The notes beneath the pieces were generated by a model, which did not search any database, was not told the DNA's origin, and saw nothing but the letters and a program-made list of their open reading frames with translations. Both the position numbers and the translations under genes were made by a program. Shown here piece by piece: positions 12,107 to 62,495 of a stretch of DNA of 64,000 bases; positions within the stretch are counted from its first letter, which is position 1, and each line of letters opens with the position of its first letter. The DNA is from Octopus sinensis (Eukaryota), in NCBI RefSeq assembly GCF_006345805.1, contig NC_043004.1, positions 13,702,001-13,766,000 of the forward strand. The letters run 5' to 3'.

Positions 12107-12689
12107 TATATTTTCAGCAAAATTTGAAGCCGTCTACCTAAGCTAAATTTTAATGTTAAATTTGTTGATATACGTTCTGAGTTAGAAATCGATTTTTGCC
12201 TTTGATCCTACAGGAATATCGATAACATAAGTAAGGTTCATTTTTCAAGGTTGATTTAATCGATAATTACTCTCCTCTCCCAAAATATGCAACTTCGTTC
12301 CTATGGATATAAAGCCATTACTAAAAAGATTAGAAAGGCAATAGTTTGGGAGAATCCTTGGAACATCAAAGAAAACAAAAAAGAAGTGCATTGGCGTATT
12401 TCCTCCTGCTCGTCTCATTTGTGAGTTCAATTCCTGCTAACATCAACTTTAGTTCCTTTTTTCCCGTATGGGATCGATAAAATAACTAGTCAAGAACTGG
12501 AGCCAATTTAACGAACTAAGCGCCTCACCTCTAAATTTCTGACCTTCCGTCTATTTTAGAAAGAAATGTTAGTAACTTAGGTACAATGTTTTTATAGGTT
12601 ATATTTACGTGTAAAACAGTTGAAGATTTACCACTGATTGTGACAAAACAAAAACAATCTTAGATTCCAATCAAGGAATAATTATATCT

Positions 12690-13260
12690 GCTCTAGGCAC
12701 AAGACCTTGAAAATGTGCGAGGGGCGATTACATCGACCCTAGTGCGTAACTGGTACCTATTTCCTCGACCTCAAAAAAATGAGAGGCAAAGAGACCCTCG
12801 GAGGAATTTGAACTCAGAACGAAGCGACAGACGAAATGCCTATTTCTTTACTACCCACAAGGGGCTAAACACAGAGAGAACAAACAAGGACAGACAAACG
12901 GATTAAGTCGATTACATCGACTCCAGTGCGTAACTGGTACTTATTTAATCGACCCCGCCAAAAGGATCAAAGGCAAAGTCGACCTCGGCGGAATTTGAAC
13001 TCAGAACGTAGCAGCAGACGAAATACCTATTTCTTTACTGCCCACACTGAACTACACACAGAGGCGACAAATAAGGACAGACAAAAGGATTAAGTCGATT
13101 ATATCGACTCTAGTGCGTAACTGGTACTTATTTAATCGACCCCGAATGGATGAAAGGCAAAGTCGACGTCGGCGGAATTAGAACTCAGAACGTAGCGGCA
13201 GATGAAATACTGCCAAAGCATTTCGCCCGGCGTGTTAACGATTCTGCCAGCTCGCCGCCT
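12690..13260 (-). mobile_element. SINE family A trimer
   Basis: One head plus three body units; junctions at 13026/13027 and 12839/12840. Confidence 0.85.
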
Positions 13261-13809
13261 TTCAAGCAAGGAATAATAAAACTTAATACAGTAGAAAAAA
13301 TTAATGCAAAGTGCCATCAAATGTTCCAACACATGGTTATAAGTGACTGAGTTCACATCATCTATCCAGAGTGGAACGCCAGTCCTTCGCAGTGGTACTG
13401 CTTTACATCTGAGTGGACAGGAGCAACATAAAATGAAGTGTTTTCATCAGGGACACAACATAACCCACGGCCCAGGAACCGAAATCATGATCTTGGGATC
13501 GTGATTTCAACACTTCTAACCAATAGACCACACGCTTTCGCTAATCGAAATACAGGCATATATAATTGGTTTCAAATTTTGGTACAAGGCCAGAAATTTC
13601 AGGAGAAGGGCAAGTCGATTACATCGCTCCCACCCCACCCAGCCCGCTACCAGTGCTCACTGTTAGTTGTTTTATCGGCCCCAAAAGGATGAAAGACAAA
13701 ACTGACCTCAGTGATATTTGAACTCAGATTGTAAACACGGACGAAATGCTGCTAAGCATTTTGCCCGGCGTGCTAACGATTCTGCCAGCTGTTTGCCTTA
13801 GACTTACAA

Positions 13810-25757: not shown

Positions 25758-26208
25758 AATATCTTAAGACGGTTGGGGCTGGTAAATAGATTTGGCGGTT
25801 ATTTCTAGCATATTGGACCAAATAGGGGCGCCATCGTTATCCCGTGTAATTAAGTCAACGCAACTTCATCATCATCATCATCACTACCCCCACCCATTAT
25901 CATCATCATCATCATTATAATCATCAACAACTACTGAATATTACTGTCTCGAATCCTAGGACTCATAGAGTCGGTCAACCGGATTCCATGGGGTATAAGT
26001 GACCAAGATCACATCACTCCAACCTACCGCCAACAAGACACCCATTCTTCCCAGGGTCACTTGTTTTACAGCTAGGTGGACTTGGAACAGCATGAAATGA
26101 AGTGTTTTGCTTAATAGTACAACACGTCACCAGGTCCGGGAATCGAAACCCTAACCACTAACCACAATGCAAAGCGCGTTATATATGTAATAAGTGGAAG
26201 TAATATAG

Positions 26209-26440
26209 TATTTCTTTACTGTCCACAAGGGGCTAGACATAGAAGGAACAAACAAGGACAGACAAACGGATTAAGTCGATTAGATCGACCCCAGTGCGTA
26301 ACTGGTACTTAATTTATCGACCCCGAAAGGATGAAAGGCAAAGTCGACCTCGGCGGAATTTGAACTCAGAACGTAAAGCCAGACGAAATACTGCTAAGCA
26401 TTTCGCCCGGCGTGCTAACGTTTCTGCCAGCTCGCCGCCT
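26209..26440 (-). mobile_element. SINE family A monomer with Tx1-like tail and TSD
   Basis: Direct repeat GTGGAAGTAATATA at 26194-26207 and 26443-26456. Confidence 0.9.
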
Positions 26441-27344
26441 ATGTGGAAGTAATATATGTAAGAAGTGGATAGTTATTTGTGAGTGATGGGCGTAGACAAC
26501 ATTGCATTAACGGTCGAAGAAGCAGAAAGGAGACACAATGTATCTTGTGAGGCGGTGATGTGTAGAGAGTTGGTGAGTGAGTGTTTGTCAATCAACACAG
26601 CAGCCCACTTCCTTTTTTGTGTAAACTTACATAATTTTAGAACGCATGAATTAATAATTACATAAAATGATTGCTGCGAACAATGCCATCAGGTTAACAA
26701 CAATACTATCAACAAAAGCGGTTATATTTCATTTCCATTTCACGTTGTCTTCAAAGGGTGTGACACAAATAATTTGAAATACCTCACTCTCCACCCAACA
26801 CATTCTGTTGCATTATTTTCTACATATTTCGTTGAGCAAACTGTGAATTATTTGCCACACCCGGTGTGCTTTTGTTAAATTTTTATGCGTGTTTTTTTCC
26901 TTTTCTTTTTCTATTTTTAATGAAAGAAATTCCTTCCAACAGACAATGGAAAATTAAATAATGAAATAGTAAGCGAAAGAAAAAAAAGAAGCTGAGAAAA
27001 ACAGATTCGAAACGTAAATAAACTATTACATAAAGAAAAACAAAGAAATTATTTTCGTTTTTCAATTAAATTATATCCTTAAGACAACAGAATAATAACA
27101 TATTCAGAGTGACTACTACTACTAATGCTGCTGCTGCTGCAAGGGCTTTAAATATATGCAAATAAAGCGTGATACAAAAGGTTACAAAAATATTTGGGGA
27201 TAACCAAGACACATAAAATCGAGAAGGGGAAATTAAAATCGTTATAAAATGAAAATATTAAAAGACAGATATTTGTTAAAAACTGAAGCTAATAAGGCTA
27301 TGTAAAAAAACAACAACAATAATTAAAGAAAGTATCATTGAAGG

Positions 27345-28450
27345 GAGCGCAAACTGGGTAACTCGTCCACACGTGGGTTAGAGACCATCTTCTCGGTTAG
27401 AACTCCACGGTTCTGGCGAGCTTCCGGTCCTGGCCCTTCCCTCCTGCTTCTTCCCCGTCCGCATGATTTTTCAGGTTACTCACCAGATTCATCTGGAACT
27501 AGACTCTGATTTAAACGCACGGTAAATTGGGATCTTCATCCAGTGTCTTTGATGCATTTTGTATGGGTTCATTGTTTTTGTTTTCGCGGTTTTACTGTTT
27601 TCCATTAGTCACATTTTATGGTTAATTATCTACCGTTGCTCTTTATCATCTCTAGACTTTGGGATGACTCTACAATGAGGGCAATTCTCTGCTTTCTGAT
27701 TGTTACCCCTTTTGTCGTCAGCTGCCAGCAGCAATGACGAAGCAAGTTTTCATTCGTAGAGCGATAGCTTCTTTAAACAACAGCTTCTGATGTCACTGGA
27801 TGTTACTTAGTCTACAGCTACTAGCCGCCTCCCCTTTTCTGTTTTTTGAGATAATCAAAGCAGAAAGCCTTCAAATATCTCTTACTGCTACATGAGTAAC
27901 AGCTGAGCTGTTAGCCTTTCAACACCAGCCAGATCACATTTCCTCCTACTCCCATGAAGTGGTACATCTCAAGGATAATTGCAAGATCTTTGAAGTAGTT
28001 AGGACCTATTTGCACAACCTACCCAATCACGTCTTATTTTCCGATTACATTGAACCAAGTACTTGATTAGTACTCTATGTTATTCTATGTTATTAACGCT
28101 TGCAATTTTTCTAAACTGTGTCACAAACAGGATAAGGAGCCAAGAGCCAATATTTCTGTAATACCTTTTAGTCTGACCTTGTGTTCCACGAGCATGTAAG
28201 CAAGTGTGTGGCACACCCACTCATCTTATCCCCTTGTCTCTTACTTAGACTTGGGGACCAGCAGTATTGCCTCATATCTCGTTCTTCGATCGATGCAAAC
28301 CATAATATTTCATATTTCGACCAGGACTTCATTCAACTGCTGCCTTGTGGTCATATTGAAAACTTCATGGCTTTTCTCAGAGACAAGCATATCACCTTTC
28401 ACCTTACTTTCCCTTCTATAAAATCGTCTTCCAAGGAAGCAGAAAACTTC
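27345..28450 (-). mobile_element. Highly eroded coding-like remnant, possibly Gypsy integrase region
   Basis: Higher GC, microsatellite-free; only faint motifs (LLVPKSK..AH, YH..G..LV); many stops. Confidence 0.25.
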
Positions 28451-28620
28451 GTGATATGGTTGTCCCACGTTCGTTTTTTATTTTGCCTTTTTATTTTGGC
28501 TTGTTTGCTTTTTTTTTTTTTAATGTTGACCTAAATTTAGAATTACTTTATTGCATGCAAGCAATGCTGATAAAAATTTCAGTGTTCTTTATTACTCTTT
28601 TCGTTAATGATTTGTGTTAA

Positions 28621-29170
28621 AGCGGCGAGCTGGCAGAAACGTTAGCTCGCCGGGCGAAATGCGCAGCCGTATGTCGTCTGCGGTTACGTTCTGAGTTCAA
28701 ATTCCGCCGAGGTCGACTTTGCCTTTCATCCTTTCGGGGTCGATGTAATCGACTTAATCCGTTTGTCTGTCCTCGTTTGTCCCCTCTGTGTTTAGCCCCT
28801 TGTGAGCAGTAAAGAAATAGGTAGTTCGTCTACCGCTACGCTCTGAGTTCAAATTCCGCCGAGGTCGACTTTGCCTTTCATCCTTTCGGGGTCGATTAAA
28901 TAAGTACCAGTTACGCACTGGGGTCAATATAATCGACTTAATCTGTTTGCCTGTCCTTGTTTGTCTTCTGTGTTTAGCCCCTTGTGGGTAGTAAAGAAAT
29001 AGGTATTTCGTCTGTCGCTACGTTCTGAATTCAAATTCCGCCGAGGTCGACTTTGCCTTTCATCCTTTAGGGGTCGGTAAATTAAGTACAAGTGAAACAC
29101 TGCGGTCGACGTAATCGACTTATTCTCTCCCGACAAAAATGGCAGCCTTTGTGGCAAAATTTGAAACCAT
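28621..29170 (+). mobile_element. SINE family A trimer
   Basis: One head, three bodies; junctions AAAGAAATAG|GTA(G/T)TTCGTC at 28820/28821 and 29002/29003. Confidence 0.9.
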
Positions 29171-31131
29171 TATTGGTTGCTATCTGTGAAATGTTTTTTT
29201 CTGTTTAGCACATCTGTCTGTGTTTGCATGTCGAAGTGTTGCCTTTTTTGTTCTTTCTGTTTGCCATATTTGTCATATTTTTTATTTCAAATTTTTATTT
29301 GTATTAAAATATCTGACGTCATGTTTAAAATTCTTGGCGGCATGTAAGCCGGACAAAAAACATAATTGACATTTTGTTAAACAAGTAAGTGAACATTTAC
29401 AAAACGAAACAGAAAATTGCTGAACTCAAACCTCAATTTTCTTTTCCATCCAAGGAGAAAGGTGTTAATATTCAAATGTTCGAAGCATAATGTTACCCAA
29501 AACTGACTCCACAATCAGTATAGATGAGGTAAGTTTTGTATCTTCACAGAACGACGCTCAAACATATCTGCTCTCCAGCAAGCATAATAATAATAATAAT
29601 TAATTGCATAAGCACACGGTCTCAAATTCGTGAAAAGAACGTATATTCGATGCCAGTGACTTTACCACACGACTGCTATTCTTTGTTACAGACTGCCGGA
29701 TAGATGAAATGTAATGTCGACCTTGGTGAGATTTGAACTCAAAACGTAGAAAGACGGGACGAATAGCGCAAAGACGTCTGTTAAAGTGCTAGTGATTCTA
29801 CGAATCATCTGGGGTTTTTTTTATTGCCTACAAGAGACTACAATAAAATGCAAAATGTATCTCACTGAAGGGTTGTAAAACGTAGCTTTACATATACAAC
29901 AAATCTATTGGTGAGTGGACGAATTTAAAACCTACATAAAAATGAACAAATTTTTAAAAAATAATATAAAAATATAAACAGACAAAAGAACTGATATGTG
30001 AGGGGAAGGATTAGGAATCTGCTAAAGTAGTAGTAGTAGTTGTAGTAGTGGTGGTGGTGGTCGTCGTCGTCGTCGTAGTTATTATTGTTGTTGTTGTGGT
30101 GGTGATGGCGGTTGTTGTGGTGGTGATAGTGGTGACTGTGGTGGTGATGGTGATGGAGGTGGTGATGGTGGTGGTGGATGCTGTAGTGGTGTAAATTAAT
30201 GGAGAACTGCTTTAGTTCCTAAAAGACTTGAGCACCAAGGATTCCAAAACTACTACTAATCGATGGTGATTTTTGCCAATAAAATATCAAAATATCACGT
30301 TCTGACATCTACTCCATGCTCTGACCAGTCAGGCTAGCTGGTCATCAAGAGAATAGAATAAAGTTTTTTTTTTCTTTCTATTCTTTTTTTCTTTCCTAGA
30401 GGAACAGAAAAGATGAGGGAAATACATTTATAGATGTAAAGAACAACTATTGGCAAACTTTATAGTTATTGGTCTGACAGCAGGAAAGGGAGATGAAAAA
30501 AAAAGAAAGAGAAAAAAGAAGCGTTGTATGGATTGATTGTTGGAAAGCCTTCGGCAGAAAACGGAGCTTTTGAACATTGGCGGCCATATTTAACTAAACA
30601 GCCTCAATCCTAAATCAGTACATCAGCCATGACATGGTAAATTGCAAAGATCAATTATACTATCAGATAAAAGCAAGATAATCCATCACCCCCCAGCCTG
30701 GGTTGATAAAGATGGAATATACTGTGCCGTGAGACATGGACGGCAAACGTGATACGAAACAAAAAGAGGAATCTATGACAGCATGTGAACATATGCATAT
30801 ATGTGAATATGTATGTAAAGTATGTATGTATCTATGTATGGATGGAGGGATGGACGGACGAATGGATGGATATGTATCATATATATGTTAAATATATTTG
30901 TATGCGTATTATTGTATGCATATGCAAGTGTATGTGTATGTGTATATATATGTATGTATGTATATATGCGTATATATTTATGTATATGTAGAAATACACA
31001 CAAACAGAGATACATATATGCATGCATATGTAGGCATGCATACACACATATATATCTATATACATACACATATATGTATATATATACTTATATCCCTGAT
31101 ATTTATGTATTCTCTCTCTCTCTCTCTCTCG

Positions 31132-31992: not shown

Positions 31993-32550
31993 TTAAAGAA
32001 TATAAGTTTTAGCTTGAAGTGATGAATGCATGGTATCTTTATATATTTGTGTTAGTCCATCCATGAAGAGTGAGGTAGAGAAAGGAAGTTTGATCAACGA
32101 GGAGTTGCATATTAAGTTGTGTTTGGAATTTTCAATAAAGAGATTCTCCTTGTTAATTCTCTCCTGTGTGGTGATCCCGTCTTTACATTGGTAGAAGGGG
32201 AATATATAGAATTTGGGGTTTAAGTCTTTAGCACATGAGTCTAAGTGGTCACTCAGTGGAATTTGTCGGTATTCCGGGAGATTTATTTGTTCTTTATGCA
32301 CCGTTACTCGTTTACGTAACGGGAGACTCGTTTGTCCAACATAATTATGTTGGCAACCAGCGCATGTGAGAACGTAGATAAGGTTCTCGGAGGAACAGGA
32401 GAAGTTAGTCTTGATTTTAAACTTCGTACCTTGTTTGAAGGTAAATTCAGAGCCTTCAAGTAGAAAGGGGCAGGTACCACAGTTTGAGCGTGCACATTTT
32501 TTTGCTGTTGGGGGTGGATGTGGTGTGTGAAGTTTGGCATTTGTCAAGAG
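31993..32550 (-). pseudogene. GIY-YIG endonuclease domain of a Neptune-type Penelope-like element
   Basis: CARSNCGTC (Cx4Cx2C linker), CSSENLIYVLTCAGCQHNYVGQT..LRKR..H; RT missing. Confidence 0.9.
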
Positions 32551-32653
32551 TTTATTAAAATTTTCTTTCATTTGAGCATTCTGCATTTTTAAAAAAACTT
32601 TTCCTTACTTATCATTTCTCCACGTGCGGTCAACACAACCCCACCATTATTGA

Positions 32654-42338: not shown

Positions 42339-42570
42339 TATTTCTTTATTGCCCACAAGGGGCTAAACATAGTAAAGACAAACAAGGACAGACAAACGGA
42401 TTGAGTCGATTACATCGACCCCAGTGCGTAACTGGTACTTAATTTATCGACTCCGAAAGGATGAAAGGCAAAGTCGACCTCGGCGGAATTTGAACTCAGA
42501 ACGTAGCAGCAGACGAAATACCGCTAAGCATTTCACCCGGCGTGCTAACGATTCTGTCAGCTCGCCGCCT
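42339..42570 (-). mobile_element. SINE family A monomer with Tx1-like tail and 12-bp TSD
   Basis: TACAATACTTCT at 42327-42338 and 42571-42582. Confidence 0.9.
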
Positions 42571-46086: not shown

Positions 46087-46694
46087 TGTATGTATATTGA
46101 TATATGGGTATTGTATATATACATTTGTGTGCGTTTGTCATAGTATACTAATGAATAAATCTAAAGTTTTAAAGCTAGAATTAAATAAGTACACTGTTTT
46201 GTCGGAAACGGATATCGTAGTCTTTTGAACAATTTCACCGTCTACAAAAAAAACCAGTGTCAACTGCACTGGTTTCAAACGTATATGCGTTTTGATCAGC
46301 AACCAATTACCATAATATTTCTGTTCATTATATTATTGTATATATCATAACCAGTATTATTGCATACATTATAACTACTGTTATTACTGATTATAATAAA
46401 TCCTCTTTACTAACTTCCTTAATTGCCACATTCTCGGTATTTAGTTCGATTTCATAAATTACTGATATGATAATAGCATTTCCGTTTTTGATGCAGTAAT
46501 ATGCTAAAAGATAAAACGTAATCGATGTACATGCATTAATTTAGTTGCTAATGAAGGGGTATTTAACTGTAATGATACCATGGATGAAATAATAGAGGTC
46601 ACTCGGTTGTCGAAAAGATTGAAAATACGATTAAGTTGCTAAAACCATTTCCCCATTTTTCTAGGCATTATGTCCTTGTATATAAACAATATAT

Positions 46695-47095
46695 GTCTTT
46701 ATTGCCCACAAGGGGCTAAACATAGAGGGGACGAACAGGGACAGACAAATGGATTAAGTCTATTACATCGACACCAGTGAGTAACTGGCACTTTATTTAT
46801 CGACTCCGAAAGGATGAAAGACAAAGTCGACCTCGGCGGAATTTGAACTCAGAACGTAATAGCAGACGAAATACCCATTTCTTTACTACCCACAAGGGGC
46901 TAAAAACACAGACAGCATAAACAGGGACAGACAAACGGATTAAGTCGATTACATCGACCCCAGTGCGTAACTGGTACTTTATCTATCGACCCAGAAAGGA
47001 TAAAAGGCAAAGTTGACCTCGGCGGAATTTGAACTCAGAACGTAACGGCAGACGAGATACCGCTAAGCATTTCGACCGGCGTGCTAACGTTTCTA
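46695..47095 (-). mobile_element. SINE family A dimer
   Basis: Junction AAAGAAATGG|GTATTTCGTC at 46875/46874. Confidence 0.85.
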
Positions 47096-48924
47096 AAAAA
47101 ACTCAGCTTTGTATTTTGTCCCTTCTGTGTTTAGCCCTGCGTGGTCAATAAAGAACCATATTTTTTACTTGTTTCAGTCATTAGACTGAGGCCATGCTGG
47201 AACACTGCCTTCAAGAATTTTAGTCGAACGAATGGACCCTAGTACTTATATCTTTTTTTTTAAGCTTGGTACTTAGACTATCGGTCTCTTTTGCCCAACC
47301 GCTAGGTCATAGGGATGTAAAAACAACACCAGTTGCTAAGCGGTGCTAGAGAACAAACATAGACACATCTCACACACACACACACATATATATACGACTG
47401 GACTCTTTGGGTCTCCGTCTACCAAATACACTCACAAGGCTTTAGTCGGCCCGAGACTATAGTGGAAGAGACTTGCAGAAAGTGCTACGCAATGGGACTG
47501 AACGCGGAGCCATGTGGTTGAGAAGGAAACTTCTTAACACACAGCCACGTCCACAACCAATACCGATTTCGAAGTTTGGCACAAGGCCAGCAATTTTAGA
47601 AACGGGGATAAGTCTATTACATCGACCCCAATGTTTAACTGCTACTTACGTTATCGACCCCGAAAGGATGAAAGGTAAAGTCGACCTCGGTGAAATTTGA
47701 ACTCAGAACGTAGAGACCGACGAAATGCTGCTAAGCATTTAGTCCGGCGCGGTAACGATTCTTCCATCTCGCCACCTTCCCTACAACCAATATTTAAAAA
47801 AGAAATTTCTCATACTACGTGTTATAAAATGTCAGCTACATCAAATCCATTCTTTCCAAACAATTGTTGGCACATAAATTTCGTTTGAGATCAACAAGTG
47901 TCGTTTCAACAGTATTGCGAGAGCAGTAACCTCCATATCTCTTTTAAAATGTTGTTTGACCAATGTAATTTGACAGTGTATGAGGAACGTAGGAATACCA
48001 TTTCACAAATTAATTTTAACTTCAAAAAGTCAAATGATGATACTAAGTTTTGCACATGACTCATTAGATTCAATGGCAATATTGAAAATTGAAAAAATAT
48101 AAATGTAGTTTACATAACAGAACAAAAGAGTCATTAAAATCAGCAGCGATATTTTCAATAATAAAACCGAAAAAAAAGTCACCGTAAAAAATGTCAACAG
48201 TGGCCTGAATCCATTACTTTATTATTATATAACTTTTGTTTTGTTAGAACTCGTAAAAATTCAATTTCAAAAACTTTTCAACTTTTGGTTCTTCGCTAAA
48301 AGTAGACCATTTCAACAAAGAATATTTAAATAAAGTGAAAGATGTGCGCTGGCAGAATCGTTAGCACTATCGGAAAAATGCTTAGCGGTGTTTCGTCCGT
48401 CTTATGTTCTACATCCAAATTACTCCGAGGTTGACTTTGCCTTTCATCTTTTCGGAGTCGATAAAATAAGCACCAGTTGAGTACTGGAGTTAATGTAATC
48501 GACTAGTCCATTTCCCGAAATGGCTGTCTTTGTGGCAAAGTAGGCAGTCTTAAGCTTAAACTGATATTTCACAGAATAAAAAAAATAATATGTAGCACAT
48601 GCTTCATTACTTTGTAAAATTATAATATACATTGAAAGCTGATTTTAGCAAAAGTTATATATGATGGAAAAATTGGGCTGTTTTTTTTCCACCGTAATTT
48701 CTTATATCACCTACTGACGCAATGTAAGTTTCAATCATTGCATTCTTCAAAGGTTTAAGAATATAGTTCTACTTTGAAACAAGAAGTCTACTTCAAGTAA
48801 TCTGATGAAAAATCAGTTTATATAATTTTATTTTTGAATATTTGATATTCTGAATTTTGTTTTTCGTTTTCTTGGCCCATTAAGTTTCCCTAAATCCCTC
48901 TCAAATATGTATGGGAGTGATGTC

Positions 48925-52427: not shown

Positions 52428-53301
52428 ATCTGATGGTATTATCTCTGATTTATTTGAGACGCATTTTCTTTCTTTCTGTAGAGAATTCTATTAATGCAAA
52501 CTTCAAAAGCGATTCAAATTAATAATATCTAACACACGTGCACGTCCGCGACCATGCACCCCTCCCCAAGCGAGCGCACACACACACACATATACACACA
52601 CATACACATACACATACACACACACAAACACCACATGTATGCGAAACACAGGCCTACAGTCATGTGTATTACTACATGTGCATACGTAGAAACAGTGAAA
52701 TTAACGTCCAGCGTCACAGATAGTAAAATTCATTAATTCTACTGTATATATTAAGACAGATTAACTGTGTGTATGATTCATTTCACTCTCCCTATCAGCT
52801 GCCGCTTAATCGCGTACCATCTTCATCCTTATTTCACGATTAGCTTCATCAAACACTAGATTACCTATGCCAATGTCTCCCCACCAGATCCTGCTCTTAA
52901 CAATGTCTCTTAATCTTTCTCGCCACAAACGCAACGCATTGGAATGCCTTCAAACTTACTTCAGCCAACCAAGATTTTCCAGCAGTCGCAAGATCAAGAG
53001 GTGTTTGAACTGAACGTTAATTAATCACATAGATTTAACCAGTCAAGGAAGGACAACGTTGATAACGTGTAATGATAAACTTATATAGTTATGTATATAA
53101 AACTTGCGATGTCATATCTACATACAGACTTCAAAGAGCATTTTAGCGCATACGTTTCCGTATGTGTGTATATATGTGTGTGCGTGCGTGCGCGCACACA
53201 TACAAACATACACACACACATACATACAGAATACATAGAGAGAAAATGAACAATTAAGCAAGTTTAATGACACATATAGATAGATAGATTGACAGACAGA
53301 G

Positions 53302-53693
<392 letters not shown>

Positions 53694-53888
53694 CTCTTTC
53701 TCTCTCTCTCTCTCTCTCTCTCCTCTCTTATCGGTCGTGTTATTCTTTGCTCCGCAGTGAAAGTTTGTTTTTGTGCTGAAAAGTTTGAAAATTTGCTGTT
53801 TTGGTCGTCGAGGCCACTTCTTTTCTGCTATTGCAGCAGAGTTCTGCCTTTTTTCCCCCTTGTTTCAAGGGGGAAGTGACGAAAAGAC

Positions 53889-55497
53889 ATGAATTTACAA
53901 CCAGTCTCCTCCGAGTCGGAGGAAAACGTTGAAAATTTGTTTGAAGGCATGAAGGAGAAAATGCGGGAGGAGGAAGGTAGAAGTAAAGAGACGTCTCACG
54001 CGAGCGTCACAAAAGCAGACGACAATATGTCTGGCGAAGCTAGTAAACGACAAGATAAGGCAAAAATAAATTTTGCGAGTGCAGCAACTCGCCCCTGTGA
54101 AAACATCGTTATTAACAAAGAAGGATTAAAGAAGTACCAAAGTTTATTAAAAAAAGAAGGTGATAATGTGAAGTTGTTCCCTCCCAGTGAATTAATTTAC
54201 GCGACGGAGAGAAAAACTGTAATTTACAAGACTTATAATGTCAAAAATAAGAAAATTGAGTTCGTACAGAGAGAAGCCATTGAAAAATGTTTGAGGCCGA
54301 TATGGCAACAAACAAGTTATATAACAAGGGGTAGTCGCTTCGGCACGGTAGAGGTGCGTTTCCCTAGCGAAGGGAACATTCAACAAGAACGTTGAAGTCG
54401 GAAGAGGTAGTTCTTTTACCATTTTATTTAGGAATGAGAACTAGTAGAATAACGGTTACGGACATTCCGCCCGAAATAGATGTGGACTTCATAACAGCAG
54501 CGATTCTCTTAGGCAAAGAGGAAGAAATTGCCATTCTTCAGTCTAAAAGATATCGCCCCACAACCTGGTATGGACAGGACTTAGAGCTTGTGATCCAAGC
54601 GAACCCCTCGGACTTGGAAAAATTGCCAAGCACCCTCACCATTGGAGATACCACCTTGATGGTAATAGTCGAGGGAAGAAAACCGAGATGCTATAAATGT
54701 GGCGAGAAAGGCCACATAGGTCGAGGCGAGCTGAAGAAGACAGCGAAGAAAATACTACAGAGGCAAGCACGACGCCGAAAAAACAATTCACCGCTAGAAA
54801 TAGCAGCCACGTCGCGCACCCCAATTGCCGAAATTCAGCCGACAACGGGAGAAAACAACGACAACAACGATGACAACAACATCAACAACATCCAGGAGTG
54901 GGTCAACGTGGAAGCTTCAAAAAGAAGACGGAAACGGAAAAATCCACCCTCTTCGGATACACAGGACTATACTCTGACACAGACAAGCACACCCACACCC
55001 ACAAATACAGTCGCAAACACACACGTAGCCAAAAAAACACACACACTGGAAAAAGCACACACAAACACTCACACACCTACCACAAGCACGCACACACCTA
55101 CAAACACCCACGCTTCTACAAGCACACACACACCCACAAACACACACACACAGCCCCCTCCACAATCACCTAACAAAAAAAAAAGAAACACCTTCACGGC
55201 GATAAATAAAAACAATAACCATTAAGGGAAAAAATTAATTTACTGAAATCGGCGAAAAAATATATCGCAACAGATATAAATAGTATTATATCCGAAAATG
55301 TAGAATTTTATACGATAGATAACGAGGATTATTTTGAAATTAAAAAATCTTTTGCGGAGGACGTAGGCCCGTTACAGATGAACTTTTCAAGCCATCTGTA
55401 CAAGCAATTCGCAAAAAAACTGACCTCGCAAAAACAAACACTCACAGACAGAAAAGATGAGGGTGAAACTACACCCTCTCTTCTGTTAAAACAGTAA
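53889..55497 (+). pseudogene. Tx1 ORF1 (gag-like), frameshifted
   Basis: ORFs 53889-54395 and 54392-55225; broken zinc knuckle EGRKPRCYKCGEKGHI; Thr/His low-complexity region. Confidence 0.8.
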
Positions 55498-55522
55498 GTT
55501 TTAAACATTCAACTAAATTTTC

Positions 55523-58500
55523 ACATTCTCGTTTAAACTCGGTTGTATAAATATTCGCGGCCTGGGGTCGTATTGGAAGCAAGGCTACCTCCCCTTACGA
55601 CCGAATCCAGACTGAGTGGGCTGCAGGCTTTTTCGCCCCTCTAAAACGGCTACGAGAAATACATTTCTCCCTGTCGACCTGGAGGGGGAGGAGGAGTGGC
55701 AGTGCTGGTCAGGAAAAACCTGGATTTAGAGATTAGAACTGTCTTTATAGATCCGGAAGGCAGGTTGGTCGTTTTGGATGTGACGCACAGCAGTGGTAAA
55801 GTGTTCAGGCTGGTCGCTGTCTATGCTCCCTGCGAAGGAAAAGCGGGCAGAAAGAGTATTTCAAAAGCCTAGAGAATTTTCTTGGCATGTCGAACACGTT
55901 AGTATTGCTTGGTGACTTCAACATAATTTGTGATGCAAGCGTAGATTATGTTGGCTCAAGAAAGAATACGAGGGGATTACCTCACCTCAACGATATGCTA
56001 AGTCGTTTCGAATTGGCAGATAGATTCAGACTGGACCATCCAGACATTCCAGAGTGGACCTGGGCAAGAAACGACGGGTCGTCCAGATCTTATATCGATA
56101 GAATCATAACTAGAAGGAAAGATAAGAAAATACTTAGCTGTCCACAACCCATATCGTCAGCTACAGCGATCACAAATTAGTGACCTGTACGCTCGACATA
56201 GATAGCATGTGTAGACGAGGTACCGGCTACTGGAAGCTAAACAAGTCACTATTGGACTGTGAAGCCTACAGGAATCGGATTAAACAATTAGTAATGAGGG
56301 CGTTAACCGGATCCATTATCAACAATAAATGGTGGTACGCTCTGAAAAGAGCCATCAAATTTGAGTCAATTAGGTTTAGCAAAGAACTAGCTAGTGCTAG
56401 AAACAAAGTAGAAAAGGAACTAGTTAAGGCTATAGAGGAGGCAATGAGGTCAGGCTGTGCATCGAAAGTATTAGCGGCGAGGTTAGCACTAGACCAACAT
56501 CTCCAAGCTAAACATGAAGGGTGCATTATTAGGGCTAAGATCCGTGCAATGAGACAGGAAGGGATCAACGCAGCCGGATGGGCCCGGGTGGTAGAGGGCC
56601 AGCGTGGCAACAACTCAACCATTCGATCCTTGACGGGCCCAAATGGTCGATTAGTAAACGAACCCGAGGAGATGTGCAAGGTGTTTCATGATCATTTCGC
56701 CCAGCTATTCGGGAGGAGCGGCGAGCTGGAGCGCGGGGAGAAGCTCGCAGACTTCCTAGCCGGTTCGCCGCGTCTATCGGGGCCGGACGCGGAATCTTGT
56801 GAGGCGCCGATCACAGCCAAAGAAGTCGAGGATATGTTGGCAGAATGCGGCGGGGACAAATCGCCGGGACTCGATGGTCTGCCTTACGAACTCTATAGTA
56901 GCATGCCAGACTTGTTTGGGCACCTACTTGCATGCGTGTACACCAACTGGCAGCAGAACGGGAGAATTCCTAAGTCTGTGAGCCGAGGGGTGGTAGCGTT
57001 GTTAAGAAAGGACCCAAACAAGGGGGATTTAATTGATAATTTCCGGCCTATCACTCTGCTTAACGCAGAGTTGAAGATCTTGGCCAAGGTCTTAGCAAAA
57101 AGGTTGGCGAGGGTCGTGGGTGAACTTGTTGGCGAGGCGCAAACTTGCGCCATCCCTGGAAGGACCATCCACGACAATCTCCACTTTCTACGCTATGCCT
57201 TAGAAAGGGTAAATAGGATTCCTGGCAAGGGTGGGGCTATGGTCCACTTGGACCAATCGAAAGCGTTTGATAGGGTGGACCATCAGTATCTGGCGGCGGT
57301 CCTCGCGGCGGCTGGCTTCGGCCCGACCTTCCGCGGATGGATCATCGCTTTATACAGCAACATCGAATCGGTAGTTCGGGTAAATGGTTTCCTTTCGGAG
57401 CCGTTCAGCATTGAACGTTCGGTACGTCAAGGGTGTCCTCTCTCCCCGCTTCTCTACGTTTTGGCCCTCGAGCCGTTGCTGAGGAGGTTGGAAACTATGA
57501 GAGGCACCCCGCAAGATCTAGGGTGCGGAAAGTCAGCTTCGGCGTATGCGGACGACATCACCGTCATCGTTTCCCGAGTCGAGCACCTACAGTGGGTGGG
57601 TGAGGCCTTAAGGGACTACGAAGCGGTGGCAGGAGCGAAAGTCAACCGGGATAAATCGGTCGGCTTGCAACTCGGCACCTGGAGGGGCAAGTCGATGTCT
57701 TCCGACAGCGTCGTAGGACGTTGGACGGAAGGACCGGTGAAAATGCTTGGGATCTGGTTAGGTCCAGATCTCCAGATAGAGAAGAATTGGAGCGAGGTGG
57801 CGAGAAAGGTGGCTCTCCTAACTCAGACATGGTCTGAACGGAATCTGTCCTTGAAAGGGAAGGCGGAGGTTGCAGAAGTGTTTATCGCCTCTGTAATCAC
57901 TTACCGCCTAACCGTAGTGCCTTGCCCCGATTCGTGGCTGAACAAACTGGAACGCATGCTCTTTCGCTTTTTGTGGAGGGGCAGCAGACCTCTTGTAAGG
58001 CGCTCTATTTGCTGCCAAAAGCCGCTGAACGGTGGGTTAGGGATGCCGTGGCTAAAAATGCGCAGACATGCGCTCAGGCTTAGGCACCTCTGGATTTACC
58101 TGGACGGTGAGCAGGTGTGGTCTCCGTTTGTCAAGCTGTTATTTCCACAGTTCACATCGTTTAACGAACTGAACCCATGGATCAAGTGTAGACCGAGGTT
58201 GGGCATGTGGCATGCAGAGTGCTATCAGGCACTCGTGCTTCTCTCCCAGTCGGGCAACGCCGGTGGCGGGGCTACTACCGCGTTCTTCTATAGAGGGTTA
58301 GTAGAGTTTAAGTGTGACGACGTCCTAGGAGAAACTCTGGGCTTCGACGAAAATCAACTGGCCAGCCTGTTCCAAAGAACATTCGGTCCGGGGCCTATGG
58401 ATAATTACCAAAAGTCCCTGGCCTGGCAATGTTACAGAGGAGCTTTACCGGTTCGAGATAAGCTCTTTAGACATGGGTGTGCACCTTCGCCGGTTTGTGC

Positions 58501-58896
58501 AAGATGTAAGAGGGACAGTGAAACTGTCCTGCACGCGATTGTGCAATGCCCCAAGGTGACTGAACTCTGGACTTATGTCGAACACCTGCTGTCGCATTCG
58601 AGAAGAGTACAACTGTCGAGCGAATCTGTAATTAAGATAGTTCCGCCGACCTTCCTGAATAGGGAGGAGCGAGCCTGTTTTCTTTCGGTAGTTGCTATGG
58701 CGAAAGAAGTAGTGTGAAGACGAGAGTAAAAGGAATTGCAACAGGCATGTTTATCTCCAGTCTCGAACTAATCGACTTTTTCGTTTTCCACATGAAACGG
58801 AAAATAAGGCTGGAGAAGAAATGCCTGTCGCAAAGTGTGTTTCGTAAAAGATGGAAGTCTATAGCAAGTATGTTGCGAGTGAAAGAACCTATTTAA
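55523..58896 (+). pseudogene. Tx1 ORF2: APE endonuclease, reverse transcriptase, C-terminal zinc finger
   Basis: INIRGL, VYAP, LLGDFN, YIDR, SDH (frameshifted EN); GYWKLN, KSPGLDG, FRPITLLN, LDQSKAFDRV, VRQGCPLSP, YADD (57545); CARC..ETVLH...C; premature TGA at 58715. Confidence 0.95.
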
Positions 58897-59131
58897 TCGA
58901 GAATGTAAAAAAGGATAAAGCAAAGTCTTCAGTGTGAGTATGTGGTTTGTGGGGTCGACCGCGTCCTCCGCTTCATTTTTTGTTAATCACTCATTCTCAT
59001 TTAATTGTATATATATTAATTGTTTGTTTATTCATGTTTCGTCTCATTCGATACCCTGACCCCAACGTTTGTTTTGTCCCCTCTTTTTCTCAACCTTATG
59101 GTGAATAAAGAAATACTCTCTCTCTCTCTCT

Positions 59132-61419
59132 TTTCGATTTACAGAATCATGCTCAAAATGGTTTCGTCACTTGCACGCAACATCTTTGCTACATTCACCC
59201 ACCTTTTTTTGAAACTTTCACGAGTCAAAATCTGCCTCCCCATTCTCACCTTCCTTTTCAAGTGGTACTTGAAAAAGTTGATGAGCGATTGGCCAGAGAA
59301 GTAAGTGTTTGTCTCTAATCCTTTTGCTCGAGTCCGCCACACACATTCTTTCACCATGGCCATCAGTATGATGAAGACTGCCTTGCCTTCCCGGATGAAG
59401 GAATGATAGACTCGGCCGACAGGCGGACTCGTCCCACACGTGACAGCAGCCGTTCGGCATAAGCCCACAGGTCCGAAATGGTTGGACACTGTACGAGTGC
59501 GTGCAGAACGGTTTCGTCGCTCTGACCGCATTTCGAGCAAGTCGGTCCGGTGTGTCTCGAACCGTGCCTGTCGAGCTTATCCCGAACAGGTAATGCTTCT
59601 CGATAGCACTGCCAGGCCAGGGATCTTTGGTGATTGTCCATGGGTCCCGGCCCTAAAGTTGTCCTGAACAGGCGGGTCAGGTGTTCCTCGTCGACGCCCA
59701 GAGGCCCCGAGCACGCATCCTAGTCTGACAACGCATCCTTCGTGTTTGGCGTTGAAGTATTGGTGGAGGGCCAACCTCGCTTCCAGTACGTTGGACGCGA
59801 TGCCAGTTCTAAGTGCCTCTTCTAATTTCTTAACTATGTCTCCCTCTATTCTATTTCGTTCTAATGCTAGGGCCTTACTGTACCTAACCGATTCTGCTTT
59901 AATTGCTTTCTTTAGGGCATACCACCATCTGTTGTTGATGATGGCACCCGTCAATGCTCTCTTAACTAATGTGCTAATTCGGTCCCTGTAAGCCTGGCGT
60001 GCCGTGAACGACGCGTTCAGCTTCCAGTAACCGGGACCCTACCTGTGTCTTATCTAAGTCAAGTGTACAAGTCACAAATTTGTGGTCTATGTAGCTGACT
60101 ATATGGAATTGTGGACAACCTACACTATCCTTATCCACTGTCCTACTGAATACTCTAAGTACGATCTGTACGACCCGATGCGGTTTCTCCATGTCCACAT
60201 TGGCACATTCGAGTGGTCCAGTCGGTACCTGTCAGACAGTTGGAAACGTCTGAGAAGGTCTTTGAGACATTTGCATCACCTATTACTATCTCTGCCCACG
60301 TAGTCTAGATGCGTGTCCAGGGTAGCGTTCCAATCCCCCACTAAAAGAAAAGATCGAGATGTTCCCAGGAAAACCTCTAGACGTCGAAAGAAATCTCGCC
60401 GGTCTGTTAAGGACGGTGCATAAACTCTTATCAGTCGAAAAGCACACCCATCGACATCCAAGACGACCAGCTTACCCTCCAGGTCTAGGAAAATTGCTCT
60501 TACTATGAGGTCCAGACTCTTCCGAAGAAGCACAGCGGTGCCATCTCCGCCCATTCTCGGCAGACACGGAGAAAAATAAATGTCGAAATGTCCGCCGAAC
60601 ATGTGCTGGAGTGCCCGCGGGCTGTGGAGTCTGGTCTCACTGATGGCTATGATATGCAGATTTTGTTACTTGCTGTTGTTTAACAGGTAGCTTTGTTTCC
60701 AAGGCGACCCCAAGCCACGTAGATTTATACTTCCTATTTTGAGTATGTTCCTATTAAAAGTTGTGTTTTACACACGAAAGGGAGAAGAAAGAGAAAGAGA
60801 GAGAGAGAGAGTCACTTACTGTCCGAAAGTTCTTTGTTCTTCACCTTTCAGTCTTCTCCCAGAAGGTTTTTGTATAGTTTTTTTGGACAGGTATTTTTGA
60901 AATCTCCCAACTGCATCAGGGTAGAGAGATTTCACGGTGCTGTGTGTGTTCTGTATTATGTGTATGATTTTAATGTGTTGTGGTGATGTTGTGCGTAGGT
61001 GATTCTTTGTTTTGGTATCATTTTCTGTTATGTTGGCGTTTGACCTAATGTGTTCCATTAGGTTTGGGTTGTTGGTGTTTATGGCTGTCAACATTGTTGT
61101 GGGGGTTGGTGTTAATGTGCTTGTGTAGATGCTTTTGTTTTCTGCGGGTGTTTTGGTTTCGGGAGTGGTAAACCTCCCTCCTTTCTTTGCCTGCTTCTCT
61201 ATTATTTTTTTCCCTTTTTTCTCCTTCCCCCTGTGGCCACTTGCCAATCCACTGTGTCGTCTTCATCTGACATGTCAGAGGAATCAAAAGGTGGGAGGGG
61301 AAGTGTATTGGGGTCTATTTCTGAGTGTGTTGACTTTGTTGTTGGTGTTTGTGCTGGTGTGTGACAGTTGGGGTGTGGTGTATGGGTTTTGGGGGTGGGG
61401 TATGAATCTTTTGAAGTTG

Positions 61420-61451
<32 letters not shown>

Positions 61452-62495
61452 GGTGGTGATGGTGTTGTTCCTGTTCTTGGTGGCGCTGGTGGTGGTGTTG
61501 GCTGGCTTGTTGCTGATGTTCCTTCATTTGTTTGTAGAGTTGTTTAATTAGTCGTGCATATAGCGGTGTGGGTAGCAGTGCTGGTATTTTTGCTCGGTTT
61601 TTGGTTTTCTTGTAGTTGTTATTTTTCGTGATCTTGTCGTTGTTGTTGCTGTTGTTGTTGTTTCTGTGCTAGTGGGCTATTAATTTGTAAGTGTGCTTTG
61701 CTACCACAAACGTAGCAACGTGGCTTTCTGCCTTCGACGACCACATCGAATCCTCTCTCAATTGGATTTGATGCGGAATTTTTTCGAAAATCATCGGATT
61801 AATTTGAGCAAGAATTTCAATTTCTTGGCCAATCCAGTTTTGCTGGTTCACGACAGCGACTTCCAAGATATAGATTTCGTCCTCGATGCCATAGCAAATG
61901 GCAGGCACGAGCTATTTTATTTCTATTTCAGGAGGAACATTCTTTATTTTAATTTTTGTCACCTTACGACCAAGGTATGTAGGGATCATCAGTAAATTTT
62001 CAAATTGGAAGGACTTTGTGGAGAGGTCCTTGGCTCTTTCTTCACTTTCGAATCGAACATCGATCGTGGTAAATCTGTTTCCCCTCGTGATGTAGTCTAT
62101 AAAGGCCCATATAGGCCTTAAACATTTTTCAACATTTTCTTGAGTGGCCTTTTCGTATAGCCTTGTTTTTAGGTTGAGTGTCCTATAAATTATTGGGGGG
62201 GGGGTCGTTTTTTTCCGTGATGTTTTGTGATGTCTGTAGTTGTGTGCTAAGGTCGTCTTTTTTAAACATTGCTTTACAGGTGAGCAGTTCTTTGGAAAAG
62301 CACATGACTATTTTCTTTAACTGTAAAGCTGCAGCAAAATTGTTTTCAGTATTCGTGTTGGTTGTGGTGGTGTTGGCGATAGTGGTGGAGCAGTGGTGGA
62401 GCCAGTGGTTATAGTAGCAGAAGCATTCGTGCGTTCTAAGGCCAATGTGCGTTCACGCGGAACGGCTTTGCTTTCAGCTTTCTTCGCGTCTAGCA
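59132..62495 (-). mobile_element. Older Tx1-like element B: ORF1, endonuclease and C-terminus, RT deleted
   Basis: Paralogous motifs EKCLRPIW..YITRG.RF, EGRKPRCYVCG..H, INLRGLG, VYAP, VGDWN, INNRWWYALK, KHEGCVVR, RSLAWQCYREALPVRDKL; many frameshifts. Confidence 0.9.

Follow-up and report, generated by a model that had tools for sequence, protein, structure and literature searches.

In Octopus sinensis, a non-coding SINE is joined to other members of its family at a fixed head position, probably by target-specific retrotransposition

Introduction

In crocodilians, SINEU-3 is mobilised by Tx1-Mar with Mariner as its target and forms tandem copies by sequential insertion, with a target-site duplication (TSD) of 16 nt, according to the available part of the source (PMC4494074). 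The octopus SINE described here resembles SINEU-3 and Tx1-Mar, as far as that text portrays them, in the preference of a SINE for another repeat, for which a Tx1 partner was held responsible there, in the tandem copies and in the 16-nt TSD. The same excerpts describe the tandem copies of SINEU-3 as enclosing a visible TSD and its partner LINEs as sharing the target, whereas the octopus SINE targets its own head, nearly always hides its TSD, has the head replaced and has no LINE found at its site. We keep the octopus SINE apart from SINEU-like pairs, as the search revealed no partner with the same site. For R1 and R2 of Drosophila rDNA, it was proposed that the transcripts include some bases of the downstream target, which pair with the primer strand, and annealing of the cDNA to the upstream target was connected to precise 5' junctions similar to those of the octopus SINE (sections of PMC2718515). 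A fixed first-strand site and tandem arrays formed by re-insertion are further similarities in these sections, which depict R1 and R2 as autonomous elements in rDNA with arrays of full elements separated by 14-bp TSDs. The octopus SINE is instead non-autonomous and has its own dispersed family as multicopy target.

Multimers of a SINE from the bivalve Scapharca broughtonii have the form TSD1-(SINE)n-TSD1 and, like the octopus arrays, start with a complete head, whereas the units behind it all lack the head up to one shared position, the whole lying within one outer TSD (PMC11481361, in part). Their inner units are described there as tail-truncated as well, and the authors favour unequal recombination, whereas octopus arrays have complete inner tails, unrelated units and older last units. 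The SINE-derived satellites (sSat) of squamates and the Dip/B1 multimers likewise combine tandem SINE parts with SINE ends, comparable to a few long homogeneous arrays in octopus, but most octopus arrays are heterogeneous 2-4-mers, and Dip multimers are described as full-length units in the accessible text (PMC10702118). Searches of the published papers listed no account of a SINE with a fixed insertion site in its own head, and the portions seen of PMC4824008, PMC13282606, PMC4758252 and PMC8967140 do not mention fixed-base self-insertion either. The family may already have been named.

Results and discussion

The window, 64,000 nucleotides of an O. sinensis contig (NC_043004.1, 13,702,001 to 13,766,000), contains, in a landscape rich in AT and in microsatellites, a short, non-coding, dispersed, high-copy repeat of 232 nt, the positions of which are numbered along the reference monomer in Table 1. 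By eye, the head of this SINE carries motifs that may correspond to A and B boxes, and ARAGORN called no tRNA in the window. The SINE may resemble MetaSINEs, which have a 66-bp Meta domain behind the head; a search of two supplementary files gave no match. Three tails were distinguished, a young tail A (divergence of solo copies 0.031) and the older tails B (0.118) and C (0.094). A young head allele, GTAGCC-GTA at positions 44-49, is common in solo tail-A copies (C at position 49 in 64/163) and lacks the GGTA motif; it may be resistant to self-insertion at position 49.

Table 1. Arrays, solo monomers and LINEs in the window.
Feature	Position	Strand	Description
Array 1	12686..13261	-	Tail-A unit with head (to 13028), second tail-A unit (13027-12841), old unit with tail C
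Solo tail-A monomer	26209..26440	-	14-16-bp TSD
Array 2 unit 1	28620..28819	+	SINE head, TAGCC-GTA variant without GGTA at 49
Array 2 unit 1, body and tail	28620..28819	+	Internal deletion of about 32 nt; young tail A ending AAAGAAATA
Array 2 unit 2	28820..29001	+	Positions 49-232, tail A
Array 2 unit 3	29002..29170	+	Old tail-B SINE from position 49 on; putative target
Solo tail-A monomer, coordinate reference	42339..42570	-	232 nt, C-variant tail, 12-bp TSD beginning AGAA
Array 3	46692..47094	-	Head from position 16, T-variant tail-A unit (to 46876)
Array 3 second unit	46692..47094	-	C-variant tail-A unit beginning at position 49
L1-group (Tx1-like) LINE, broken	53729..59115	+	3' end AATAAAGAAATA resembles tail A by eye
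Second Tx1-like LINE, broken	59139..62300	-	Family ends in (TATC)n; tail closest to tail A

The original prediction described three arrays of one tRNA-like head followed by repeated bodies of about 180 bp, with five joins at the same nucleotide, and all of these are present in the window. The tail ends at 13028 and 12841 (reverse strand), 28819 and 29001 (forward strand) and 46876 (reverse strand) are followed, in this order, by GGTATTTCGTC, GGCATTTCGTC, GGTAGTTCGTC, GGTATTTCGTC and GGTATTTCGTC. All five joins indeed share the nucleotide, with the correction that their first G is already part of the head (position 49), so that the join consists of AAAGAAATA followed by GGTATTTC. That two of the arrays terminate in a different tail was likewise correct, and these are two distinct old tails, B in the focal array (28621-29170) and C in array 1. 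The latter has an outer TSD of 15 bp with one mismatch, and its neighbouring A units are 0.11 apart. For the focal array, no outer TSD was called; its second unit differs from the first at diagnostic sites (distance 0.069). Beside array 3, a LINE-type 3' end of about 50 nt (47115-47164, forward strand) lies head-to-head with the array, the head of which begins at position 16.

Genome-wide (2.72 Gb), the junction of the tail with GGTATTTCGTC at position 49 gave 19,837 exact 29-nt matches and its reversed control none. Exact 23-nt tail ends numbered 98,609, and by comparison of these two different patterns at least one fifth of the young tail ends lie at a single base of their own family. A second class of joins at position 16, which the original prediction did not contain, had 1,637 exact matches in the genome. 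The contiguous sample comprised 1.064 Mb, made up of 464 kb around the window and 600 kb of contig C1 picked for tail density, and held 180 SINE blocks. In this sample, 47 of 90 tail-A ends ran into SINE sequence, 40 of them at position 49, one at 50, five at 16 and one at 9; these fractions are not genome-wide estimates, as the regions lie beside the window or are tail-dense and many arrays were obtained from exact junction patterns. The histogram of junction positions that had been suggested as a check thus places 41/47 SINE-joined ends at 49-50, rather than scattering them. The predicted GAAATA-GG-TATTTC hairpin is present as an inverted repeat, but its fold is weak (-1.8 kcal/mol, DNA parameters) and it is missing from the position-16 joins. 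We rejected it as the cause of the joins, and it seems to be incidental.

The relationship between units was analysed in 43 arrays of at least three units, which provided 81 adjacent pairs, 41 of them from arrays of up to four units. In these shorter arrays, adjacent young units had a concordance of 0.51 (41 pairs) compared to 0.52 between arrays, and distances were 0.101 within and 0.099 between arrays. The original prediction had offered rolling-circle copying as a second option, and arrays might indeed form in one event by reverse transcription of a circular RNA of about 184 nt or by jumping of the reverse transcriptase between RNAs cut at position 49. Such an origin would suit the near-identical adjacent pairs (distance below 0.02), which sequential insertion does not explain. 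They account for 9/81 pairs and occur mostly in long arrays, for example L306, L307, L309 and, on C1, a 10-mer. Arrays ending in tail A would also be compatible with jumps of the enzyme from one RNA template to a different one. Against this, units within a short array resemble each other no more than random pairs do, on which ground rolling circles were rejected there, the inner units are younger than the last units and the TSDs of the latter, and the same motif is used with TSDs at non-SINE sites of the genome. An Rfam scan of 26100-29300 yielded neither a ribozyme nor any other family above the gathering score, and the units of an array are not identical, so that features of retrozymes were not found. 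Formation in one event is thus very unlikely. Homogenisation of the sSat type was absent from arrays of up to four units and was seen in a few long arrays only, suggesting that a minority of the long arrays underwent local copying.

The order of events was derived from 111 arrays, many of them fetched by junction patterns, of which 55 with a terminal B or C unit were measurable. In 49/55, the last unit was older than the first (0.085 vs 0.034, p = 4e-9). Last C units also differ widely from one another (mean 0.166) and retain the C alleles at positions 62, 64, 142, 145 and 158. An examination of whole multimers for TSDs of their own, as had been suggested, detected them in 19/42 C-ended arrays, compared to 17/34 solo C copies, and their mismatches (20/299) were like those of solo C (28/317, p = 0.37) and unlike those of solo A (35/1215, p = 0.003). 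The older last units, the old outer TSDs and the kept C alleles together indicate that the old SINE was present first. Arrays ending in tail A had outer TSDs in 19/34 cases, and these were fresh (6/312 mismatches). Such fresh duplications would be expected if a single master dimer or trimer, or a small number of them, were transcribed and retrotransposed whole; the required read-through is possible, as four consecutive T do not occur in the reference monomer. The occurrence of an identical junction in a few loci with doubled heads (see below) would fit as well. The single-master explanation, named beforehand as what would overturn the prediction, was rejected for short arrays and is largely refuted for those ending in the old tails B or C, since their last units are old, diverse and flanked by TSDs of the old family type, and unit haplotypes vary both between and within arrays. 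Overall, we consider it unlikely.

While the last units are old, most heads of the arrays are young. Heads with a divergence of at least 0.10 made up 17/55 in arrays, 32/163 among solo A and 55/68 among solo B/C copies, from which our own mixture estimate gives roughly 80% replaced heads. The young allele C at position 49, which lacks the target motif, occurred in 6/31 array heads, including the focal array, and in 2/68 solo B/C copies. Because most array heads are young, incoming cDNA appears to replace the head of its target, likely by pairing with the homologous target head and displacing it. A plain insertion at position 49 would leave the head 1-64, a full SINE and then the sequence from 49 onward. 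This doubled-head form had 77 matches, which were collapsed by hand to 57 loci, well under 1% relative to the 19,837 merged joins. In 33/57 loci, the lengths fell within a 5-nt window that places the end of the duplication near position 64. At C8:13635117, a 16-nt duplication from position 49 has old-type letters on both sides, and locus L222 has a 16-nt TSD from 49 on both sides. The identical junction shared by a few doubled-head loci indicates that some composite forms were copied. Traces of the hidden TSD as shared alleles were weak (4/19 at position 64, p = 0.04), and private mutations shared within 49-66 amounted to one, too few to tell. Tandem runs of a 65-67-bp head fragment (1-64) in 5-9 copies were observed at C3430:1628-2208, C7:15322784-15323091 and C1:195358955-195359257; these are doubled heads that kept amplifying.

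The exact junction and the combination of young heads with old outer TSDs could also be accounted for by ectopic gene conversion or unequal recombination, which would move the junction of a donor dimer into old SINEs without a nick at position 49. With conversion, however, the old-type alleles from position 62 onward and the lack of a gradient along the last unit are difficult to reconcile, and the doubled heads with a 16-nt TSD at 49 as well as the non-SINE GGTA targets need a nick. Such an exchange is therefore quite improbable.

TSDs were called with an anchor on flank bases 5-13 and found for 89/162 tail-A elements and, in a second set, for 114/204; in the first set, a single minisatellite accounts for five rows, and a few rows are mis-anchored. 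The length of the TSDs is variable with a mode of 16 bp (26/89), and they begin at the tail end. Among solo A copies, 78/121 had a TSD, compared to 0.01 in the control. Non-SINE flanks in the 1.064 Mb began with AGAA in 9/43 cases (expected 0.31), with GGTA in 6/43 (expected 0.11) and with TATA in 4/43 (expected 0.98). For T-variant tails, the 5' TSD copy approximates a Y followed by GGTATT, as at the border of SINE positions 48 and 49, indicating that the SINE site is one instance of a motif that is also used elsewhere. The target is thus a short motif that is also used outside SINEs, with two self-sites at 49 and 16. In tail-B and tail-C copies, the ends (…GAATATT, …GGATTATT and …CCAATAT) overlap the start of their own TSDs (ATATT, ATTATT), and 3' microhomology with the target is thus also found in the older families.

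The target used goes with the identity of one base that lies 13 nt before the end of the tail: T occurred with GG in 37 and with AG in 5 cases, C with AG in 9 and with GG in 2 (p = 2e-5). By our own count among the matches listed, 97/100 position-49 joins had a T tail (with the pattern fixed to AG) and 86/100 position-16 joins a C tail, whereas the C variant had a share of 20/100 among the matches listed for tail ends overall. The association of T with GGTA and position 49 and of C with AGAA and position 16 suggests that read-through RNA guides the targeting. In a hand calculation, self-sites were struck about 80 times more per site than other YGGTA sites (25/140 vs 6/2,701). In ten arrays, old targeted units were nearer to the young sequence over positions 49-61 than solo old copies (2/40 vs 69/248; 6/90 vs 94/558, p = 0.011). 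Pairing of read-through RNA with the primer strand would explain the tracking of the tail variant, the excess at self-sites and the match over 49-61, and we give RNA guidance of site choice close to an even chance. The flank of C-variant tails at position 16 could be a terminal AAGAAAT repeat rather than SINE read-through.

The same self-insertion might be directed by protein alone, with Tx1-type endonucleases for GGTA, AGAA and TATA, each with one tail variant, and with easier 5' joining or Pol III chromatin as the reason for the excess in SINEs. Three related LINE families that each have their own target agree with such specificity, as does the main role of the endonuclease in target choice in the part of PMC4494074 available. 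G, moreover, rarely precedes the TSD (3/89), and a test for asymmetry, with the 3' TSD copy nearer to the motif than the 5' copy, was not significant (16 toward, 10 away, 7 neutral, p = 0.16 by a fixed rule, several rows appearing mis-anchored; 8 vs 3 by eye in an earlier set). A protein-only choice is less easily combined with the result that no LINE with a GGTA end was found and with the better match of last units to the young sequence up to position 61. In addition, a motif of 5-6 nt leaves a roughly 20-80-fold excess at SINE sites by hand calculation, and the SINE itself carries both main motifs where the two kinds of join occur. We regard protein-only choice as possible but less likely than not.

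If RNA contributes to guidance, the site could be inherited, with a source copy that reads into its flank and a few 3' bases of this RNA choosing the next target. To this idea, we give slightly less than even odds. The progeny of copies at 49 or 16 would then home to the same position as their source and overwrite old heads, a self-reinforcing, RNA-guided homing loop in a non-autonomous element. Inheritance of the site would also account for sister Tx1-like LINE families that each keep their own microsatellite.

In the search for a partner, three LINE families with related 3' ends were sampled, and they have their own targets, namely (CT)n, (TATC)n, and CC-starting and other sites. The family of the LINE on the forward strand (Table 1) inserts in (CT)n, in 25/30 ends among the matches listed by our own count, and not in the SINE site; its best PDB match is human L1 ORF2p (E = 9e-56). 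The designation as Tx1-like is based on the match to the L1 group, on predicted APE, RT and zf domains and on microsatellite targets such as those in the accessible text of PMC4494074. In the (TATC)n family, 26/26 ends found among 29 loci start with TTAT, nearly all with TTATCT. An alignment of tail A with the 3' end of this family covers 47 columns with a score of 49, which makes it a candidate partner of the SINE. Joining of Tx1 LINE 3' ends to the SINE site, which had been proposed as a check, was not found in the three families: ends at position 49 or GGTA numbered 0/30 among the matches listed for the (CT)n family, 0/30 among the matches listed of 39 in a further search and 0/26 in the (TATC)n family. 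Of another 84 ends, two were at GGTA and both had SINE-type tails, and the four matches of the last search were two ends in (TATC)n and two SINE-like joins. An ESM Atlas search returned generic RT clusters only. A Tx1-type partner enzyme appears likely. Of the predicted Tx1 machinery acting at a fixed site of the SINE's own family, self-insertion is the part that was supported, whereas the search for a LINE end of Tx1 type at this site was negative in the families sampled.

Several structures of these LINEs were noted besides. The two elements in Table 1 are nested (53276-62300), with the (CT)n-type element inside an (AG)n tract of the (TATC)n-type 3' UTR on the reverse strand, which by eye seems to resume near 53400-53693 and to reach as far as an (ATAG)n tract (53276-53400). 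The third family, which also ends in AATAAAGAAATA (L403-L412, L424-L426) and is putatively a LINE, forms tandem arrays of about 5.3 kb with the same short flank between units, for example at C1:74180457-74199388, and its 5' ends seem to carry pieces of the target sequences of other loci.

Taken together, copies of a 232-nt SINE with a LINE-like tail join at position 49, less often at 16, of other, often older, copies of the family. As the core of our explanation, target-primed reverse transcription with a Tx1-type enzyme would insert the SINE into its own family, after which the cDNA pairs with and replaces the target head; we assign this a probability of about 0.8. In favour of the originally predicted homologous 5' joining at a fixed own-family site are the advanced age of last units, the outer TSDs of old type, units that are independent of one another and the loci with doubled heads. 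Judged by sequence, this would be a variant of Tx1-type target-specific SINE retrotransposition with the own family as target. The bottom strand would be nicked between Y and GGTATT and the top strand cut about 16 nt downstream, as the observed TSDs suggest, and priming would take place at the tail end AAAGAAATA seen in the junctions. As the target head is homologous to the cDNA, most heads would take on the incoming sequence, in accordance with the young heads observed, and the 16-bp duplication is hidden. Each join rebuilds the site, so that rounds of insertion could repeat with unrelated source RNAs, consistent with units being independent of one another. Local copying would explain the growth of a minority of the long arrays. 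Regarding site choice, the odds are about equal that a source copy residing in an array is transcribed into the next unit, and that the read-through RNA, with the 3' end GGUAUUUCGUC or AGAAACG behind the tail sequence AAAGAAAUA, would pair best with the nicked strand of another SINE.

Self-insertion gives the SINE a safe harbour and provides old copies with a renewed promoter head. The dating of repeats and the assignment of subfamilies would be misled, since the head of a locus is not of the same age as its body. The family offers tens of thousands of natural events for testing pairing of the RNA 3' end against the endonuclease in the site choice of non-LTR elements, and the same events bear on homology-directed 5' joining and on retrotransposon-based gene insertion.

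The SINE family is abundant in four further sequencing runs (X5, X6, X8 and X13), the contigs of which break at the SINE, so that none spans an array locus for comparison with an empty allele. A frame of 203 amino acids in the window (31993-32604, reverse strand), probably a Penelope-like fragment by our assumption, has a weak match to GIY-YIG (E = 7e-4, below the cutoff). Several tail-B and tail-C copies stand in tandem with a shared TSD between them. On C1 (13007432-13008327; L202-L207), the end of tail A and a TAATATTAACAC spacer form a 53-bp minisatellite of at least 20 units.
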